From a virus: a DNA stretch of 64,000 nt. How positions within the stretch are numbered: the stretch's first letter is position 1; each line of letters opens with the position of its first letter. The position numbers and the translations under genes were made by a program. Positions 1,829 through 63,055 of the stretch are shown here, piece by piece. The stretch lies in IMG/VR virus record IMGVR_UViG_3300045988_174371, positions 64,001-128,000 of that record; one strand, given 5' to 3'. The notes under the pieces were generated by a model. That model was not told the origin of the DNA and did not search any database. It saw only the letters and a program-made list of their open reading frames with translations.

Positions 1829-3088
1829 TTAATTTGCGATAGAGTGCTTGCCATTGATGGTAGCCAGCCCGGAAATAACCCGCTGAACCTCCTCCTCGCG
1901 CTCTTTAACCACGCGCTCAGCGTCCAGGACAGCCTTATCTAAGGTGTCCTGTAGGGCATTGTTGCAGTACTGGATACACTCAACACCATTTCGACCATGC
2001 AGAGAGTTGAAGATAACTTCTAGAACCTCGTAGGCGGTGTCGAAGCCGTAAGAGTTAGCACATTCACTAATGGGTTTATGTGCAATTTCATCAATATTGC
2101 GTAGCTCCGCCTCCTGCCATGCCTGCCACTTTGCGTATGCCGCCTCCTGCTCGAAGCTTAGAGCCTCACTAGCGGTATACTTCTCAATGCATTCAGTGTC
2201 TCCTTGAGAGTCGGTGAGCATGAGCATATCCACCTGCCATACCGGGTCGGAACAGCCGGTGCATACGTCACGTTTCCTATAGTAGCTACCCAAGTCGTTG
2301 ATTGCCATGTCGTCTACATGCGCCAAGTGCTCACGGCGTAGCGTGATGGTGCCTGCCGCATTGCCTTCACTGTCGGCTAGGTAGATGGTTGAGCTATTGC
2401 CGACGGTCACCTGTAGCTTCTTAGTGGCATTGCGGGTCTCCACGGTGATAATGGTACCTTCCATGAAGCAGTAGCCGGTTGCCAGTCCATCTGCATTGGT
2501 GAGCATGTGGAACTTGCCGCTAGAGCCGCTATTGATGGCATTGTACTTGGTGTGCATCTTTGAGTCTGCTACAGCAAGTTCTTCCATCTTCTCACGAATG
2601 AGTGTAAGGGTTTCCAGTAGGGATTTCATGCCGTCATGCATATGGTTACGGGTCGCCACCAATACGTTCGCCTGCACGTCAGAAGTGATGGTGTGCGGTT
2701 CACGCTGGGAGCCTGCCATACCCTTAACGCCCTTAAGAAGCTCTCTTGCCTCATTCAGTAGCTTCACATAGCTGTCAGCTTCACTCTTAGCCGTGTCGCC
2801 TGCAAAGGTCTTGACGAGGGCTACCTGCCAGGTATCGACTTCACGCAAGCATGGCGAGGTTACGTAGAAGTTCTTACGGTAATTAGTGATGAGCTTCTGA
2901 ATGGCGTATGCGCCCTGCTGGTCACGGCTAGGGATAAGGGCATATGCTCCATCATTTAGAATTGCCATATCTCCTGCGTGTGAGGTAACGCTGTAGGCGG
3001 CGTACTTGCGCTCCTTATATGCTTCAAGGTGTTGGGTGGTTTGGGTAACAATTACGCTATCGAGAGTGAGCGCCTTAGCGTTTTCCAT
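1829..3088 (-). CDS. hypothetical protein (419 aa)
   Basis: long ORF; ATG preceded by AAAGGAGAA; no recognisable family. Confidence 0.75.
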   Translation of the reverse strand: MENAKALTLDSVIVTQTTQHLEAYKERKYAAYSVTSHAGDMAILNDGAYALIPSRDQQGAYAIQKLITNYRKNFYVTSPCLREVDTWQVALVKTFAGDTAKSEADSYVKLLNEARELLKGVKGMAGSQREPHTITSDVQANVLVATRNHMHDGMKSLLETLTLIREKMEELAVADSKMHTKYNAINSGSSGKFHMLTNADGLATGYCFMEGTIITVETRNATKKLQVTVGNSSTIYLADSEGNAAGTITLRREHLAHVDDMAINDLGSYYRKRDVCTGCSDPVWQVDMLMLTDSQGDTECIEKYTASEALSFEQEAAYAKWQAWQEAELRNIDEIAHKPISECANSYGFDTAYEVLEVIFNSLHGRNGVECIQYCNNALQDTLDKAVLDAERVVKEREEEVQRVISGLATINGKHSIAN

Positions 3089-3177
3089 GAAGGGGGTTCT
3101 CCTTTTTAGTAGTTTGATGGGGGTGAGTGTTGCCCCGGCGAAGGGCTGGTTCCTTGCCGGGGCACAGTGTGTGAGAT

Positions 3178-3597
3178 TTAGCGGGTCTGGATAGTGAATG
3201 AGAACTGGCTGGGAGCGTCGGTGATAGCTACCAGCTTCTTGATGCCCTTGAAGGTGTTCTCGCGCTTGACGCGGAACTCGAACTCCGGCTCCTCGCTAGA
3301 GCACTCCTTATCAAGGAAGATTCCAATGCGAACGTAGGCTCGGGTTCGCTTAACCTCCTTTGCGAACAGGTTCAGGTCGTCAAGGTTGTGTGCCTTCCTG
3401 AGGTATTCAAGGCTTTCACGCCACACGTAGCCCTTGTCGATAAAACGCTTCCCGGATTCCCTTTCTGCATTGTAGTGCTCGTAGTTGAAGTGTCCGAACT
3501 GTCCACGAAGGGTAACATCCTTCGCCTCGATAGTCTTCTTATTCTTGCCAATGCATACGTCTGCCTGCCAGTCGGTAGTGATGATGTGGATAGCCAT
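3178..3597 (-). CDS. hypothetical protein (139 aa)
   Basis: internal ATG at 3597 preceded by the conserved leader CTACCGAAAGG; family promoter upstream. Confidence 0.75.
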   Translation of the reverse strand: MAIHIITTDWQADVCIGKNKKTIEAKDVTLRGQFGHFNYEHYNAERESGKRFIDKGYVWRESLEYLRKAHNLDDLNLFAKEVKRTRAYVRIGIFLDKECSSEEPEFEFRVKRENTFKGIKKLVAITDAPSQFSFTIQTR

Positions 3598-16073: not shown

Positions 16074-16158
16074 GTGCCTGTGGTGGAATGGTAGACACGC
16101 CAGCTTGAGGGGCTGGTGTCCGACACAGGACGTGCGGGTTCGAATCCCGCCAGGCACA
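16074..16158 (+). tRNA. tRNA-Leu (anticodon GAG)
   Basis: hand-folded cloverleaf: acceptor GTGCCTG/CAGGCAC, D-arm GTG-GAATGGTAGA-CAC, anticodon stem CCAGC/GCTGG with loop TTGAGGG, long variable arm, T-arm GCGGG-TTCGAAT-CCCGC; CCA not encoded. Confidence 0.9.
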
Positions 16159-16289
16159 CTAGTCACCCCCTATATGGGGTGGTGAGAAGCTTCAGGCTAA
16201 TCTTCTGCCCCCTGCATGGCTTCATCTCATGTAAACCTGGTGGTAATCCCATCACTGGAGTTAAAAGACCTAACGAAAGGTATGTCATT

Positions 16290-23988: not shown

Positions 23989-24068
23989 GTACCTACATGG
24001 GTTACAGGAGCCACCTCAAAGCACAGGGGGGGGAGAAGCTTGGATTATAAGCTACTCTTCCCACTGCT

Positions 24069-24191
24069 GGGTGGGTCAGGGATTTTCCCTGGCGGTACCC
24101 CCCCCCGCCAGCCGAAGCCAGCCTTCCTGGTCTTGACGTGTTAGCGTCCGTTTAGTTTACCCACCTCTCCCAGTCTCTCACAGGCGAGGTG
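24069..24191 (-). ncRNA. unclassified structured RNA, copy A
   Basis: no ORF; diverged duplicate of 60449-60579 with conserved blocks and compensatory changes in hairpins. Confidence 0.5.
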
Positions 24192-24200
24192 TATTGGTTG

Positions 24201-26067: not shown

Positions 26068-26123
26068 GCGCTACGGCTTTCCTTAGATGCTTAAAACATG
26101 CCCCCAAGGAGGAAATATAGATG

Positions 26124-26196
26124 TACCCCTTGCCGGGTTCGAACCGGCGACTTCTAGATTCGGACTCTAGCGCTCTATCCACTGAGCTAAAGGGGC
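26124..26196 (-). tRNA. tRNA-Arg (anticodon CCG)
   Basis: hand-folded: acceptor GCCCCTT/AAGGGGT (G1-U72 wobble), D-arm GCTC-AGTGGATA-GAGC, anticodon stem CTAGA/TCTAG with loop GTCCGAA, T-arm GCCGG-TTCGAAC-CCGGC; position 32 is an unusual G. Confidence 0.8.
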
Positions 26197-31611: not shown

Positions 31612-31845
31612 TTACTGACCGCTCTTAATGCGGGCAATTTCAGCTTCTACCGCCTCTTCGCCGCTCTCGTAGCCGTAGTACCTAAGGATTTCGGAGCGAT
31701 AGTAGCAGAACTCATCAGTCAGGCGTAGCTTATAAGAGCTACTCTTTACGAGCTCAGCATCAATAATTTCCCTGAGCGTATCCTCAGGGACGATAAAACC
31801 AATACCTTCACGATAGGTAATATCCTCGATAATGGGTTTGCTCAT
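31612..31845 (-). CDS. small hypothetical protein (77 aa)
   Basis: ATG at 31845 after AGAGGAG. Confidence 0.65.
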   Translation of the reverse strand: MSKPIIEDITYREGIGFIVPEDTLREIIDAELVKSSSYKLRLTDEFCYYRSEILRYYGYESGEEAVEAEIARIKSGQ

Positions 31846-31898
31846 GCGGGTACTCCTCTTTCTCTGCGGCATGAATCATTGGGGTGAATTACCTCTTA

Positions 31899-31928
31899 AT
31901 TATACCACATATTCAATGCTTGCTGGAA
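31899..31928 (-). promoter_or_regulatory. family promoter (TGg-TATAAT, weak -35)
   Basis: upstream of CDS 31612-31845. Confidence 0.5.
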
Positions 31929-41766: not shown

Positions 41767-42369
41767 TTATTTCCGCGTGTAGGTGATGAACTGGTATACG
41801 GCTTGGTGCCTACCACCATTACTGTCTAGCAGGTATCCGTGTTCGCTCAGTTCGGGTAGTTGTTGGTTCGTGGCGATTGTCCAGTCGTCTAGGTGTAGGT
41901 TGGGTACTTTGGCGTCACCGGGTATCTCTACTAGGTCGCTTGCGGCGAGTGCGGTTTGCTCTACGACCTGAACACGCCTGTAGTGGGGTAGGTCTTCGCG
42001 GGCGAGGGCTTCAGTGTATAGTGCGCCACCGCCGATAATCCATGCGTCAGCTAGTGAGCCTGCGTTAGTGGCTTCCTGTCCCTTGTGAGCCACCTCTAAA
42101 GCCGCATCCAGGCTAGATACCCAGATACCCCCGTCGCGTACTTCTACAGCACCCACGGAGCGGCTGACAATAATGTTTGCGCGCCTTGGCAGGGGTTTAT
42201 GGGTATCTGGTAGTGATTCCCATGTCCGCCTACCCATAATGACCGGCTTACCGGAAGTTACTTCCTTGAAGTGCTGTAGGTCTTCGGGAATATGCCAGGG
42301 CATTACCCCGTCACGCCCAATAACTCCATCTATGGTTTGCGCCCAGATAGCGCCTAATGTAAGTGCCAT
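41767..42369 (-). CDS. folA: dihydrofolate reductase
   Basis: N-terminus LGAIWAQTIDGVIGRDGVMPWHIPEDLQHFKEVTSGKPVIMGRRTWESLP is a typical DHFR signature; lies in an operon with thyA. Confidence 0.85.
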   Translation of the reverse strand: MALTLGAIWAQTIDGVIGRDGVMPWHIPEDLQHFKEVTSGKPVIMGRRTWESLPDTHKPLPRRANIIVSRSVGAVEVRDGGIWVSSLDAALEVAHKGQEATNAGSLADAWIIGGGALYTEALAREDLPHYRRVQVVEQTALAASDLVEIPGDAKVPNLHLDDWTIATNQQLPELSEHGYLLDSNGGRHQAVYQFITYTRK

Positions 42370-42944: not shown

Positions 42945-43826
42945 TTATATAGCTACCGGGGCGGCGATGCCGGGGTGATGCTTGTAGTCCACTAGTTCGA
43001 AGTCTTCGTACTCGTAATCGAAGATGGAAGCCTTCTTACTCTTGATAACTAGCTTGGGGTATGGGTAGGGTTCGCGTGCAGGGTAGGGGTTGCCGTCCGG
43101 GTCTAGACCGATGCCTAGCTGTTTCTTCACCTGTTCCAGGTGGTTTGAGTAGATGTGGCAGTCGCCGCCCGTCCATACGAAGTCGCCGGGAACCATGCCC
43201 ACCTCTTCGGCAATGAGGTAGGTCAGTAGTGCGTATGAGGCGATATTGAACGGTACGCCGAGGAACATGTCTGCGCTACGCTGGTACAGCTGACAGGACA
43301 GCTCCTTCACTCCATCCGGTCGCTCGTTCACATAGAACTGGAACATGGTGTGGCAGGGCGGTAGCGCCATGTCGTCCACCTCAGCAGGGTTCCATGCCGA
43401 AACGATATGGCGACGTGAGCTAGGGTTATTCTTGAGGGATTCGATAACCCTAGCGATTTGGTCTACCGTACCGCCGTCAGGGTCACGCCATGAACGCCAC
43501 TGCGCGCCATAGACACGACCAAGGTCGCCGTTCTCATCCGCCCACTCATCCCAAATGGTCACGCCACGCTCCTGCAACCACTGAACGTTAGTAAAGCCAC
43601 GAAGGAACCACAACAGTTCAACCGCTACAGACTTGAAATGAACACGCTTCGTAGTGATAAGCGGGAACGACTCACGAAGATTGAACCGCATCTGTCGCCC
43701 AAACACACCGTAGGTTCCGGTTCCGGTACGGTCTTCACGGTTAGCGTTAGCGGCAATGGCGGCGGCATTCTCCACAAGAATTTCCCTGAGCAGGTCTTCA
43801 TACGGGGTCGGAATGATGTCAGTCAT
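42945..43826 (-). CDS. thyA: thymidylate synthase (ThyA type)
   Basis: ATG at 43826 after AAGGGAG; canonical blocks [28 protein letters not shown], catalytic [32 protein letters not shown]. Confidence 0.95.
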
Positions 43827-43959
43827 GAGGGGTACTCCCTTGTTCGGGTGGATAAATTCACCACCCATTATACATGATGCAGAGCGAACATGTGGGACAT
43901 GGGAGTAGGGTTCTGGATGGAGAAATAGCCCTCTACCGCGCGTCGATAGAGGGCTTGGG

Positions 43960-44007
43960 GTGAGCGTGTCCCCGGTGGACTTTATTTACCGCCGGGGACA
44001 CGCTCAC
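43960..44007 (-). terminator. hairpin after CDS 44011-44301
   Basis: GTGAGCGTGTCCCCGG / CCGGGGACACGCTCAC 16-bp inverted repeat. Confidence 0.7.
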
Positions 44008-44010
44008 ATG

Positions 44011-44301
44011 TTAGAAGTTCTGAGCTAGAGCGCGAACGCCTTCCTTGAGGTTTTCGGTAATTGCGTCGAAGTCAAGGTTTTCAATTTCACTCACGTGCTC
44101 CTTGTAGTGGAAGTAGATGTCGAGGTAGCGCTTCCCTTCCTCTCGAAGTGCGCTTGCCTGCGCTTCAATCTTCTCTGCCTCATCCAGCTCACCAAGGCTC
44201 TTTGCAATGCCTTCAAAGGCATCAGTGAGGTGAGCGAAGTCAGTGTACAGAGCGGAAATGATGTAGACCTTTTCGACCTTTTTAATAAATTCTCGCGACA
44301 T
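44011..44301 (-). CDS. small helical hypothetical protein (96 aa)
   Basis: ATG at 44301 after CCGAAAGGGTCAC leader. Confidence 0.7.
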   Translation of the reverse strand: MSREFIKKVEKVYIISALYTDFAHLTDAFEGIAKSLGELDEAEKIEAQASALREEGKRYLDIYFHYKEHVSEIENLDFDAITENLKEGVRALAQNF

Positions 44302-44369
44302 GATTAGTGACCCTTTCGGATGGTTTGCGGTTTCGGTGGCTAGGGCTCCCCCCTTTACCTTACGCCTAT

Positions 44370-44399
44370 AGTCTATCACAGATTTAAAGCCATACGCAA
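44370..44399 (-). promoter_or_regulatory. family promoter (-35 TTGCGT, TGa-TAGACT)
   Basis: upstream of CDS 44011-44301. Confidence 0.6.
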
Positions 44400-44545
44400 G
44401 TTGAATTTGAGTGAGATGCGCTACAAATAATGCAGGTGCCTCAGCCTGCACTCAAACACACAGGAAAGAGTGAGTCCCCCGTGTCGTACATAGTTTCACT
44501 TACGCATCAGGGAGCGAAACTTCTATGTCGATAGATTTTAGGCAC

Positions 44546-44587
44546 GAAAAAGCGAGGTTTCCCTAAGTTACGTTAGAGAAACCTCGC
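44546..44587 (-). terminator. intrinsic terminator
   Basis: GCGAGGTTTC / GAAACCTCGC stem followed by TTTTT on the minus strand. Confidence 0.65.
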
Positions 44588-44797
44588 AAATACCGAAAGG
44601 TGTGAGTTCTCCAAGTTCGGCTCAAGATAGAAGACAATGCAACTACCCTGGCTATTGATTACTCAACAGCAACGCTTCCCCTTGAAGCCTGAAGCTGACC
44701 GCCTCCCTGAGAAATTTTAGTTTCCCAGGAGCCCCGCCATTAAGTCGGGGTAGCACCTGTACAGACGCAGAGGTTTCAGTCTCAGTTTTACTCACAC
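44546..44797 (-). ncRNA. candidate ~250-nt non-coding RNA
   Basis: bounded by a near-consensus promoter (44803-44832) and an intrinsic terminator (hairpin 44552-44587 plus U-tract); no RBS-preceded ORF; several stable hairpins. Confidence 0.45.
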
Positions 44798-44802
44798 AAT
44801 AA

Positions 44803-44832
44803 ATTATAGCAGGCGTAATTCCGTCGTGTCAA
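44803..44832 (-). promoter_or_regulatory. near-consensus sigma-70-type promoter (TTGACA, 18 nt, TGc-TATAAT)
   Basis: read directly on the minus strand; differs from the window-wide family in its canonical -35. Confidence 0.6.
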
Positions 44833-44885
44833 GTCGGTAGCCGCGATTTTAGCCACACTCGACAAAAAGCTGGGCAAGTAGACAC

Positions 44886-45272
44886 CTACTGGTGTACCCT
44901 AACTTTCTTTACTCTCAGAACTATTTCATTGAAGTCGGCACCCTCTTCCAGAGTGAAGCCTTCAATGGTGGCACCCTTCTTTGCCATATCGACCCAAAAT
45001 GAGTAATTGTCTGCTTCATCTGTAATGGTAGCGAATGCCTGCCTAGTTTCATCGGCATTATGGAAGATGATAAAAACCTCATCTTCTTGATGTTTGCCAT
45101 ATCGACCGTGATTTACAATGCCGTAGTCCTTAAAATCCAGCTTGCCAATTACAGCTTCGCAGTTGATAAAGTCTTCGGAGTCATATTCAAATTCTATGCC
45201 GCTTGGCGAAAGCCACCAGCCAAATGCTTCAACAGTCGCGGAGACATTCTTATAAGTTCCATCATGTTTCAT
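44886..45272 (-). CDS. hypothetical protein (128 aa), paralog family E
   Basis: ATG at 45272 after CCGAAAGGTGC; C-terminus NYSFWVDMAKKGATIEGF aligns with 52749-53114. Confidence 0.7.
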   Translation of the reverse strand: MKHDGTYKNVSATVEAFGWWLSPSGIEFEYDSEDFINCEAVIGKLDFKDYGIVNHGRYGKHQEDEVFIIFHNADETRQAFATITDEADNYSFWVDMAKKGATIEGFTLEEGADFNEIVLRVKKVRVHQ

Positions 45273-45340
45273 AACATGCACCTTTCGGTCGGTTTCAAAA
45301 GTTTCTAGGCTTCCGGGTTCCCCATCCACCCTGCACATAT

Positions 45341-45370
45341 AGCCTATCACATGTTTTTAGTGAAATATAG
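45341..45370 (-). promoter_or_regulatory. family promoter (TGa-TAGGCT, weak -35)
   Basis: upstream of CDS 44886-45272. Confidence 0.45.
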
Positions 45371-46400: not shown

Positions 46401-46476
46401 AATTGTTGTATCCCTTCGGTGGGTTGAAAAGCTGACTAGGCTTCGGGTTTCTATTCCCCGACTGCCTTATATCTAT

Positions 46477-46506
46477 AGTCTATCACAGATTTAAAGCTGT
46501 ATGCAA
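46477..46506 (-). promoter_or_regulatory. family promoter (-35 TTGCAT, TGa-TAGACT)
   Basis: upstream of CDS 46023-46400. Confidence 0.6.
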
Positions 46507-53114: not shown

Positions 53115-53188
53115 GATTGGGAGCCTTTCGGTAGATGATTAGCGTTTCGTTGTTTCGGGTTTCTATAACCCGCTTGCCTCATGCCTAT

Positions 53189-53218
53189 AGTCTATCACAG
53201 ATTTAAAACTCTTCGCAA
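53189..53218 (-). promoter_or_regulatory. family promoter (-35 TTGCGA, TGa-TAGACT)
   Basis: upstream of CDS 52749-53114. Confidence 0.6.
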
Positions 53219-56300: not shown

Positions 56301-56373
56301 GTTGGCGATTCCTTCCTGAGAATCAATGTTTGGCTTGGAGGGGCTTTTCGGTATCCCCCTGCCTTATATCTAT

Positions 56374-56403
56374 AGTCTATCACAGATTTAAAACTGTATG
56401 CAA
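56374..56403 (-). promoter_or_regulatory. family promoter (-35 TTGCAT, 18 nt, TGa-TAGACT)
   Basis: upstream of CDS 55986-56300. Confidence 0.6.
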
Positions 56404-60303: not shown

Positions 60304-60395
60304 CTACCTGCCACTAACAGTCACAGGGGTATCTAAGGTAATTTCCCCGTCTACAATGCTTACACACTCAAACTTTCCACCTCTGCTACTAGGTG
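60304..60395 (-). pseudogene. 3'-terminal remnant of a fourth family-F gene
   Basis: nucleotide-level match to the last ~27 codons plus stop of 60680-61450 (translates ...GGKFECVSIVDGEITLDTPVTVSGR*); no start or N-terminal part. Confidence 0.6.
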
Positions 60396-60448
60396 TGTGG
60401 ATGAGCCGCGCACACTGAGAAGGTTCTTACCCATGAGCCACCCATTTA

Positions 60449-60581
60449 GGTGGGTCAAGGATTCTCCCTGACGGTAACCCTCCAGCCAACCCAAGGGTTA
60501 GCCTTCCTGGTCTTGACGCCACCCGAAGGCAATGCCCGTTTAGATTATCCACCTCTCCCAGTCTCTCACAGGCGAGGTGCT
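60449..60581 (-). ncRNA. unclassified structured RNA, copy B
   Basis: no ORF; diverged duplicate of 24069-24191; extended -10 directly upstream on the minus strand. Confidence 0.55.
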
Positions 60582-60585
60582 AGTT

Positions 60586-60596
60586 GGATTATACCA
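60586..60596 (-). promoter_or_regulatory. extended -10 promoter TGGTATAATCC
   Basis: read on the minus strand immediately 5' of RNA copy B; no clear -35. Confidence 0.5.
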
Positions 60597-62949: not shown

Positions 62950-63025
62950 GATTGTTACCCTTTCGGTAGCTGGTTAATGATTTACGGCTTAGGGGTTTTT
63001 TCGCATCCCCTTGCCTTATATCTAT

Positions 63026-63055
63026 AGTCTACCACAGATTTAGAACTACACACAA
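63026..63055 (-). promoter_or_regulatory. family promoter (-35 TTGTGT, TGg-TAGACT)
   Basis: upstream of CDS 62575-62949. Confidence 0.55.

Follow-up and report, generated by a model that had tools for sequence, protein, structure and literature searches.

A candidate stand-alone RNA gene with a complement of the phage's own ribosome-binding motif in a jumbo-phage-like genome fragment

What is made from an intergenic gap that carries a consensus bacterial promoter at one end and an intrinsic terminator at the other? This question is raised by a locus in the IMG/VR virus record IMGVR_UViG_3300045988_174371, of which positions 64,001 to 128,000 were analysed (64,000 nt, called the window below; coordinates refer to it unless a related locus is named). 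The minus strand of the gap between the coding sequences (CDSs) of a 128-aa and a 96-aa protein is predicted to give a transcript of about 250 nt, which we call RNA-A. An earlier note, made from the letters of the window, had suggested a small RNA (sRNA) at this place. The joint best explanation of the evidence presented here is that RNA-A is a genuine stand-alone non-coding RNA gene, carried as an exchangeable cassette and acting in trans, with pairing to ribosome-binding sites (RBSs) as the favoured mechanism. Drawing on sequence comparison and predicted folding, we assign this reading a probability of roughly 55%. The features discussed are listed in Table 1.

The gap between the flanking CDSs measures 584 nt (44302-44885) and not 430 nt, as the earlier note had it. 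The note was right in placing there, on the minus strand, a TTGACA hexamer, an 18-nt spacer and TGcTATAAT. This promoter scores 12/12 against the sigma-70 consensus and additionally has the TG of an extended -10; the chance expectation calculated from base composition is ~0.018 for a 12/12 match and 0.0011 if TG is included. Scanning of both strands of the 64 kb has found no other match of at least 11/12. The promoter also differs from the family promoters used elsewhere in the window, as had been noticed: RNA-A alone has a full consensus -35. In the relatives described below, the -10 reads TATAAT, TATACT or TATAGT (TAnnnT), and the TG, the 18-nt spacer, A2 and T6 are constant in 9 distinct sequences. 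About 250 nt downstream of the promoter lies the intrinsic terminator which the note had pointed out, a 15-pair stem followed by TTTTT. A consensus primary-sigma promoter and a strong intrinsic terminator strongly imply, as far as sequence goes, the limits of a predicted transcript of ~250 nt. We infer that RNA-A is made by the host RNA polymerase as a discrete stable RNA acting in trans. GC content of the unit is 0.470 against a window mean of 0.516 (10th percentile), and the spacer cannot be called AT-richer than its surroundings, as had been claimed, because the flanking CDSs (0.481 and 0.429) are equally low or lower in GC.

Forty-two related loci (designated by L and a number) were gathered by scanning metagenome contigs and by way of homologues of both flanking proteins. 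RNA-A was found in 13 sources including the window (the others are L001, L002, L006, L008-L012, L032-L034 and L042), which provide 9 distinct sequences. The conserved block containing the promoter, RNA-A and the terminator (44527-44885) shows 96-100% identity in L001, L002, L006 and L008-L012. The spacer just downstream of the block is 77-91% identical in L008-L012, with 80-85% for the downstream CDS; the corresponding values for L002, L008, L009 and L012 are 77-95% for the adjacent spacer and 80-90% for the CDS. L001 is ~99% identical to the window throughout, and for most of the region both L001 and L002 are nearly the same as the window. Taken by itself, the unit has 97-100% identity in close relatives, with 77-91% for its flanks. 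The most divergent copies, in L034 and L042, are 78-79% identical to the window copy and have diverged about as much as the neighbouring protein genes. The copy in L032 (3476-3733) is 90% identical to that of the window, next to a CDS with 99.2% and a promoter region with 100% identity. It is either a decaying copy or a recombinant allele, or else it reflects errors of a contig with 3x coverage. An IMG/VR search with the two flanking proteins returned no relatives. Scans of genome, metagenome and viral collections with an exact 21-mer of RNA-A gave 0 matches; the copies that metagenomes yielded later carry differences inside this 21-mer.

The predicted minimum free energy (MFE) of RNA-A (44797..44547) is -98.5 to -100.5 kcal/mol, with z = -6.1 relative to dinucleotide shuffles, none of which (0/200) was equally stable. 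The opposite strand has z = -4.6. The minus strand can be taken as the folded one, because the abundant G-U pairs would be A-C mismatches on the opposite strand. The hairpins listed in the earlier note recur in the MFE fold (-98.5 kcal/mol). The model strongly implies a compact core of ~200 nt, in which P1 closes P2/P3 and hairpins H4-H9, followed by a 12-nt single-stranded linker and the terminator hairpin. In close relatives, the variants of RNA-A have predicted folds that exceed the window copy in stability by 4-10 kcal/mol; random mutants with matching base changes fold worse, only 1-4 out of 200 being as stable as the natural variants.

A first covariation test was uninformative, since the five near-identical haplotypes it used varied too little. 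A hand-specified structure (P1, P2, P3, H4-H9 and the terminator) was then scored on the 9 distinct sequences. Standard pairs make up 96.1% of pair cells. Eight pairs are changed on both sides, compared to 3.1 +/- 1.4 in shuffles (0/500 reach 8) and to 0-3 in slid controls with partners moved by 1-3 columns. Three of these double-sided changes fall into H5, one into H8 and four into the terminator, the latter in L034/L042. In H5 of L034/L042, C-G is replaced by U-A, G-C by A-U, and A-U stands for G-C or the reverse (A-U/G-C), while the loop becomes UACG (UNCG-type). In H8, pair 130/145 changes from U-A to G-C, and the loop is GUAA or GCAA, a GNRA tetraloop in 9/9 sequences. Within P2, pair 18/104 is seen as A.C, A-U, G.U and G-C, and pair 14/108 as U-A or U.G; otherwise P2, H6 and H9 have solely wobble-compatible one-sided changes. 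H7 and the outer three P1 pairs have no covariation support in these sequences. The 5' domain (RNA 1-49) is almost invariant even in L034/L042. The structure of RNA-A thus appears to be under selection, its fold being kept by compensatory changes at ~79% identity.

The slot between the 128-aa gene and the thymidylate synthase gene thyA occurs in three states: it is empty, holds RNA-A or holds an unrelated structured RNA, which we call RNA-B. In L035 the slot is empty, thyA being located within ~95 nt of the 128-aa gene and preceded by a TATAAT hexamer. Neither RNA-A nor RNA-B was detected in L036, L038 and L040. In L034/L042, RNA-A is directly upstream of thyA, ~150 nt from terminator to gene, and the 96-aa gene cassette is missing; in the window, 245 nt and a family promoter lie between RNA-A and the next gene. 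RNA-B fills the slot in L021-L023, L037, L039 and L041. Global alignment of L034 (RNA-A) with L022 (RNA-B) reveals homologous promoters, GGCTTG.CA.AAC..GCCTGATATrGTT, and a homologous terminator with its downstream region, TAAATGCGGGGwACCACTAAyAGTAAATGGTGGTGCCmCGCATTTTT..GyGCCTAAAAC..., up to thyA, whereas the intervening 200-230 nt are unrelated. The common terminator was also found by nhmmer (E about 5e-5), and the RNA-A terminator is homologous to those of the RNA-B cassettes in L022, L023, L037 and L039. BLAST and the nhmmer profile of RNA-B gave no match at the RNA-A locus in any source, and the RNA-A profile misses the RNA-B core. Homologous promoters and terminators around unrelated cargo are an argument for a discrete RNA product and speak against a specialised riboswitch expression platform as well as a decayed gene slot. 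The latter had been suggested in the earlier note and does not agree with what the relatives have at this site. Rather, the arrangement of these loci strongly implies that the RNA-A unit is a dedicated accessory RNA-gene cassette which can be exchanged.

RNA-B is a second structured RNA family of ~200-230 nt, unrelated to RNA-A and without an Rfam match. In an alignment of 13 copies, 14 of the 33 predicted pairs have compensatory double changes. The RNA-B copy at 60.5 kb of the window is preceded by a promoter of its own, TGgTATAAT (60596-60588), which directly follows a terminator hairpin. Two jumbo-phage contigs of IMG/VR, 307 and 319 kb in length, have RNA-B copies interspersed among their tRNA genes; in L028, for example, 5 copies and 13 tRNAs occur within 5.7 kb. 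In L021 (5575-5860), RNA-B lacks the terminator module and runs into thyA ~40 nt before its ATG; therefore the RNA-B promoter would drive thyA there, with RNA-B as a 5' untranslated region (UTR). An RNA-B-like match on a contig of a metagenome-assembled genome labelled Acutalibacteraceae gives a weak hint of the host.

Because Rfam gives nothing for RNA-A, its function had to be inferred from its anatomy. The linker between P1 and the terminator is the only long single-stranded segment of RNA-A, with an unpaired probability of ~0.8 or more at each position of the predicted ensemble. Extended by the two final nucleotides of P1, its sequence is ACCUUUCGGUA, which is exactly complementary to TACCGAAAGGT, the consensus of the family RBS. 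Genes of the window lie mostly on the minus strand in single-gene cassettes, in which a family promoter, GTGATAGACTATAGG, is followed by a 5' UTR of ~50 nt and by the RBS TACCGAAAGG(T/G), 9-10 nt before the ATG. Sense-strand sites matching 8 nt of the complement occur 13 times in the window (1 expected; 1 antisense), those matching 10 nt 7 times (0.06 expected; 0 antisense) and those matching 11 nt 4 times (0.02 expected; 0 antisense). Nine of the 13 8-mer sites belong to promoter-bearing cassettes, in which they sit 8-10 nt before the ATG. The 8-mer of RNA-A itself, CCUUUCGG, is present in RNA-A only when the sense strand of the related loci is considered, and it is kept in 8/9 sequences despite changes in both its flanks. 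Duplexes of RNA-A with cassette starts are predicted at -15 to -18.6 kcal/mol versus -7.5 to -9.8 kcal/mol for the 16S rRNA 3' end on the same sites, the sequence of which was assumed and may not be that of the host. The earlier note had also seen an orphan cassette on the opposite strand. An RBS-like CCGAAAGG is indeed present there, but only 1 nt lies between it and the start codon (9-10 nt in real cassettes), and conservation of the promoter-like motif does not extend to the divergent L034/L042. The durable part of that idea appears to be the exact complement of the family RBS in RNA-A.

We propose that the exposed ACCUUUCGGUA would pair with the Shine-Dalgarno region TACCGAAAGG(U/G) common to the many small-gene cassettes of the phage and would compete there with the 16S rRNA 3' end (CCUUUC). 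GAAAGG would pair with a CCUUUC-type 16S tail, and its role as a Shine-Dalgarno sequence in this proposal would require a CCUCCUUUCU-type tail of the host 16S rRNA. Translation of the whole cassette gene class would be damped or timed, or the stability of its mRNAs altered. The folded core would make the RNA stable and might also act as a conformational switch, in which a GCCGAA/UUCGGU hairpin, seen in the alignment fold, would form in place of P1 and hide the seed. Such control of the cassette gene class in trans is our leading mechanism, suggested by sequence matches but on its own less likely than not. A bolder version seems rather unlikely to us: RNA-A would mimic the 16S anti-Shine-Dalgarno tail as a global governor that titrates the TACCGAAAGG sites of dozens of cassettes, with the P1/alternative-hairpin toggle as its switch, and would be made by the host polymerase and swappable with the tRNA-array-associated RNA-B.

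Several points weigh against the interpretation of RNA-A as a selected trans-acting RNA, or against its anti-RBS part. Both the transcription start and the 3' end are predictions. Independent covariation events are few, because essentially all double-sided changes come from one lineage (L034/L042), and the high identity of the close relatives could partly be due to recent recombination instead of selection. The L032 copy has several pair-breaking changes (H5, H7, H8) and its seed reads CCUUUCUG. As to the linker, the chance that an 8-mer survives at about 80% identity is roughly 17%. An unconstrained RNAduplex scan with a threshold of -14 kcal/mol or lower retrieved 15 of 91 start regions and 272 of 2983 random windows, a weak enrichment which we do not use as evidence. 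RNA-B, the alternative cargo of the slot, has no anti-RBS. Finally, a structured core of 200 nt exceeds the needs of a simple antisense RNA, which suggests additional or different functions, e.g., protein binding or a conformational switch.

The main alternative, which we regard as doubtful, takes up this last point: the core would be the functional part, in a protein-binding or decoy RNA that sequesters an RNA-binding protein of the host or phage, a nuclease or a defence sensor, and the anti-RBS match would be incidental. The large compact core with its GNRA loop and the constancy of its 5' domain agree with this, as does a cassette that may carry the complex, elsewhere tRNA-interleaved RNA-B instead; the antisense model is, moreover, statistically weak. 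However, an exact 11-nt RBS complement in the only long single-stranded segment would be left unexplained. RNA-A has no repeated protein-binding motifs of the CsrB/RsmZ type, and no protein partner can be identified nearby: the neighbouring proteins, including the 128-aa one, have no Pfam or PHROGs matches, and the AlphaFold2 model of the 128-aa protein is unusable (predicted local distance difference test score 36.6). A cis-acting leader (riboswitch, attenuator or processive-antitermination element) controlling read-through into thyA and the DHFR gene is a decidedly less probable option. All 13 RNA-A copies are upstream of thyA in the same orientation, at the short distance mentioned above in L034/L042; RNA-B is fused to the thyA start in L021; and, with P1 as the closing helix, the core has the look of an aptamer. 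Yet the terminator is strong, generic and common to the RNA-B cassettes, a complete cassette with its own promoter stands between RNA-A and thyA in the window, and the TATAAT hexamer just upstream of thyA persists where the slot is empty. No riboswitch family was matched even at E <= 10. The sole candidate antiterminator pairing, GAAACCUC/GAGGUUUC, is lost in L034/L042, where the terminator arm has changed and its partner has not, so the antiterminator/riboswitch reading was rejected for lack of conservation in these relatives.

We consider it very improbable that the unit is a neutral relic, i.e., a decayed or inverted gene slot with a fortuitous promoter and terminator, conserved through recent recombination only. 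The likeness of the opposite strand to a family 5' UTR (promoter-like motif, hairpin, RBS), the degenerate look of the L032 copy and the phage mosaicism evident throughout the locus would fit a relic. Preservation of the structure by compensatory change at about 79% identity and conservation of the promoter elements would not, nor would the coincidence of the block boundaries with the transcription unit or the lack of conservation of the inverted promoter-like motif in L034. A small protein is hardly credible. A GTG open reading frame (ORF) of 47 codons (44795-44652) and a 7-codon ATG ORF exist, as the earlier note had said, and neither is preceded by a Shine-Dalgarno sequence. The GTG ORF starts at the predicted transcription start and could be leaderless; GTG is replaced by ATG in L008, L010 and L011, and the first 13 codons are nearly conserved. 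Nevertheless, in the 9 sequences the predicted product varies between lengths of 47, 25 (with two different tails) and 19 residues, and the ORF is frameshifted or truncated in 6/9. We ruled out the leaderless protein on account of the 1-nt deletion or premature stop in relatives. Variable sites (one alignment) show 4 first-position versus 3 third-position changes, i.e., no third-position bias, and the sequence is constrained as paired RNA instead. The RNA-A unit therefore appears to have no conserved ORF. With a single conserved block in 13 copies and compensatory changes of the fold added to this, the sRNA predicted in the earlier note is indirectly well supported by sequence comparison.

Searches for a known family were negative. 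Rfam 15 (4227 models) gave no match for RNA-A at the gathering threshold in the window or in 6 related loci, and at E <= 10 only chance-level matches appeared on 44200-45000 and on L034 3400-3760. The best of the sub-threshold ones, the 'drum' RNA RF02958 (18.3 bits against a gathering threshold of 43, E = 0.36), aligns, by a hairpin and the GGGUU-containing stretch after it, with the opposite strand of the terminator region in L034; being on the wrong strand and covering only the terminator module, it was treated as chance. BLASTN of the RNA-A spacer against 50,697 phage records found no match, and a 6-kb query matched only at thyA. ARAGORN detected no tRNA or transfer-messenger RNA at the locus and, in the window, only the two tRNA genes of Table 1. 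There is no overlapping hydrophobic ORF as in type I toxin-antitoxin systems, and no tandem repeats of type III systems are visible on reading the unit, where BLAST and nhmmer self-matches are confined to the terminator palindrome. Literature searches for a described equivalent returned nothing relevant. By the Rfam, phage-database and literature results, the RNA-A family is new.

In itself, a phage gene for a small or structured RNA that has an intrinsic terminator and a host-type promoter is a known kind of element. RoxS/RsaE, Staphylococcus aureus RNAIII and the Spr-type sRNAs with UCCC loops are anti-Shine-Dalgarno pairing sRNAs of Gram-positive bacteria. RNA-A shares with them that it stands alone as a gene, between a primary-sigma promoter and an intrinsic terminator, and that it exposes a pyrimidine-rich motif complementary to the Shine-Dalgarno region of several mRNAs, with predicted RBS occlusion. 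Unlike these, it is phage-encoded and Rfam-negative, has a much larger core (~200 nt with six hairpins), and its predicted targets are the phage's own genes, reached via one common RBS motif of 10-11 nt. The phage antisense or immunity RNAs P1/P7 c4, P4 CI, P22 sar and lambda OOP, about 70-80 nt long, pair with RBS or leader regions for timing or immunity and share with RNA-A that they are small and phage-encoded. They are cis-antisense or aimed at one or two sites in their own operon, whereas RNA-A is ~250 nt long, is not antisense to an annotated neighbour and is complementary to an RBS motif that at least 9-13 genes within 64 kb have in common. T4 rnaC/rnaD ('species 1 and 2') are stable RNAs of the tRNA cluster with unknown function. 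By description, RNA-A resembles them as a structured phage RNA that is neither tRNA nor mRNA, and RNA-B does so by being interleaved with tRNAs. However, RNA-A is not located beside tRNAs (the nearest are at 26123 and 16074) and, with a promoter and a terminator of its own, would not be released from a tRNA precursor by processing. Listeria SreA/SreB are riboswitch-derived trans-acting sRNAs, comparable in that RNA-A has an aptamer-like domain closed by P1, then a terminator, and in that the terminated product would pair in trans; RNA-A, in contrast, matches no known aptamer class and has no conserved antiterminator. Both the cassette-swap architecture and the complementarity to a genome-wide RBS motif are unusual.

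The genome around RNA-A offers few landmarks. The window resembles a part of an uncultivated jumbo phage, related contigs reaching 260-354 kb. Only thyA and the gene for DHFR are recognisable in it, the latter through Pfam/PHROGs, the former through BLAST matches to annotated phages and through Pfam labels that were precomputed for relatives. Among 20 large ORFs of the window (244-470 aa), none had a Pfam match above threshold, and the 10 that were also compared with PHROGs had none there. Judged by its sequences, this seems to be a very 'dark' jumbo-phage lineage. The family promoter has 17 matches in the window (4.4 expected), including 13 minus-strand copies. It reads as an extended -10 (TGaTAGACT) without a -35, a form which points to a separate temporal class or to a polymerase modified by the phage. 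The third TGnTATAAT of the window, TGGTATAAT (31899-31907, minus strand), is located ~27 nt 5' of the ATG of an 86-aa ORF (31612-31872) and is a possible further host-type promoter. A long perfect hairpin without a U-tract, GTGAGCGTGTCCCCGG...CCGGGGACACGCTCAC, lies at 43960-44007 between the gene for the 96-aa protein and thyA; in L001, 3 nt are inserted in the region of its loop. In L008, L009 and L010 (~3085-3570), a 160-aa protein with a SocA_Panacea domain (PF13274) is encoded two genes upstream of the RNA-A cassette. The window has different genes at this position, and the whole region is a hypervariable array of small cassettes.

Table 1. Features of the RNA-A locus, other RNA genes and neighbouring genes. 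Coordinates refer to the window unless a related locus is named; for RNA-A, RNA position = 44798 - coordinate.
Feature	Coordinates	Strand	Remarks
Conserved block	44527..44885	minus	begins at the upstream gene's stop codon, ends 19 nt beyond the U-tract; holds promoter, RNA-A and terminator
-35 TTGACA	44827..44832	minus	invariant in all 9 distinct sequences
Extended -10 TGcTATAAT	44803..44811	minus	TG 44811-44810, hexamer 44808-44803
Predicted transcription start	44797 or 44795 (G)	minus	6-8 nt after the -10; placed by promoter geometry
RNA-A, predicted ~251-nt transcript	44547..44797	minus	
P1, 5' strand	44790..44797	minus	RNA 1-8; inner 5 pairs (4-8) invariant, outer 3 not conserved
P1, 3' strand	44600..44607	minus	RNA 191-198
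P2	44689..44785	minus	RNA 13-22 with 100-109; encloses P3, H4, H5, H6
H5	44732..44750	minus	RNA 48-66; 3 double-sided changes in L034/L042
H8	44651..44670	minus	RNA 128-147; GNRA tetraloop 44662-44659
Single-stranded linker	44588..44601	minus	RNA 199-210; anti-RBS ACCUUUCGGUA at RNA 197-207, 44601-44591
Intrinsic terminator hairpin, 15 bp	44552..44587	minus	
U-tract UUUUU	44547..44551	minus	5 or 6 U in L034/L042
Upstream 128-aa gene	44886..45272	minus	adjoins RNA-A in all 13 copies
Downstream cassette	44011..44379	minus	family promoter 44365-44379, RBS CCGAAAGG 44312-44319, 96-aa gene 44011-44301
thyA	42945-43868		thymidylate synthase
DHFR gene	41767-42369		
Family promoter copies (examples)	44365-44379, 45336-45350, 46472-46486, 53184-53198, 56369-56383, 63021-63035	minus	
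RNA-B copies, window	60380-60587, 24001-24199	minus	
RNA-B copies, related loci	L009 1396-1635; L021 5585-5812; L022 2894-3119; L027-L031		
tRNA-Leu(GAG)	16074-16159	plus	ARAGORN
tRNA-Arg(CCG)	26123-26196	minus	ARAGORN

Phage regulatory RNAs are known from a handful of model phages, and to our knowledge almost nothing is known about those of uncultivated jumbo phages. The RNA-A locus provides a well-delimited new RNA family with comparative support and a testable idea of its targets, in which one RNA would face one RBS motif of a gene class. The locus also shows how structured RNA genes can replace one another, as cassettes, between promoter and terminator modules that stay conserved. The work on RNA-A has led to RNA-B, a better-sampled structured RNA family which populates the tRNA arrays of other jumbo phages. 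Both families are ready candidates for Rfam and for in vitro work that does not need a phage culture.

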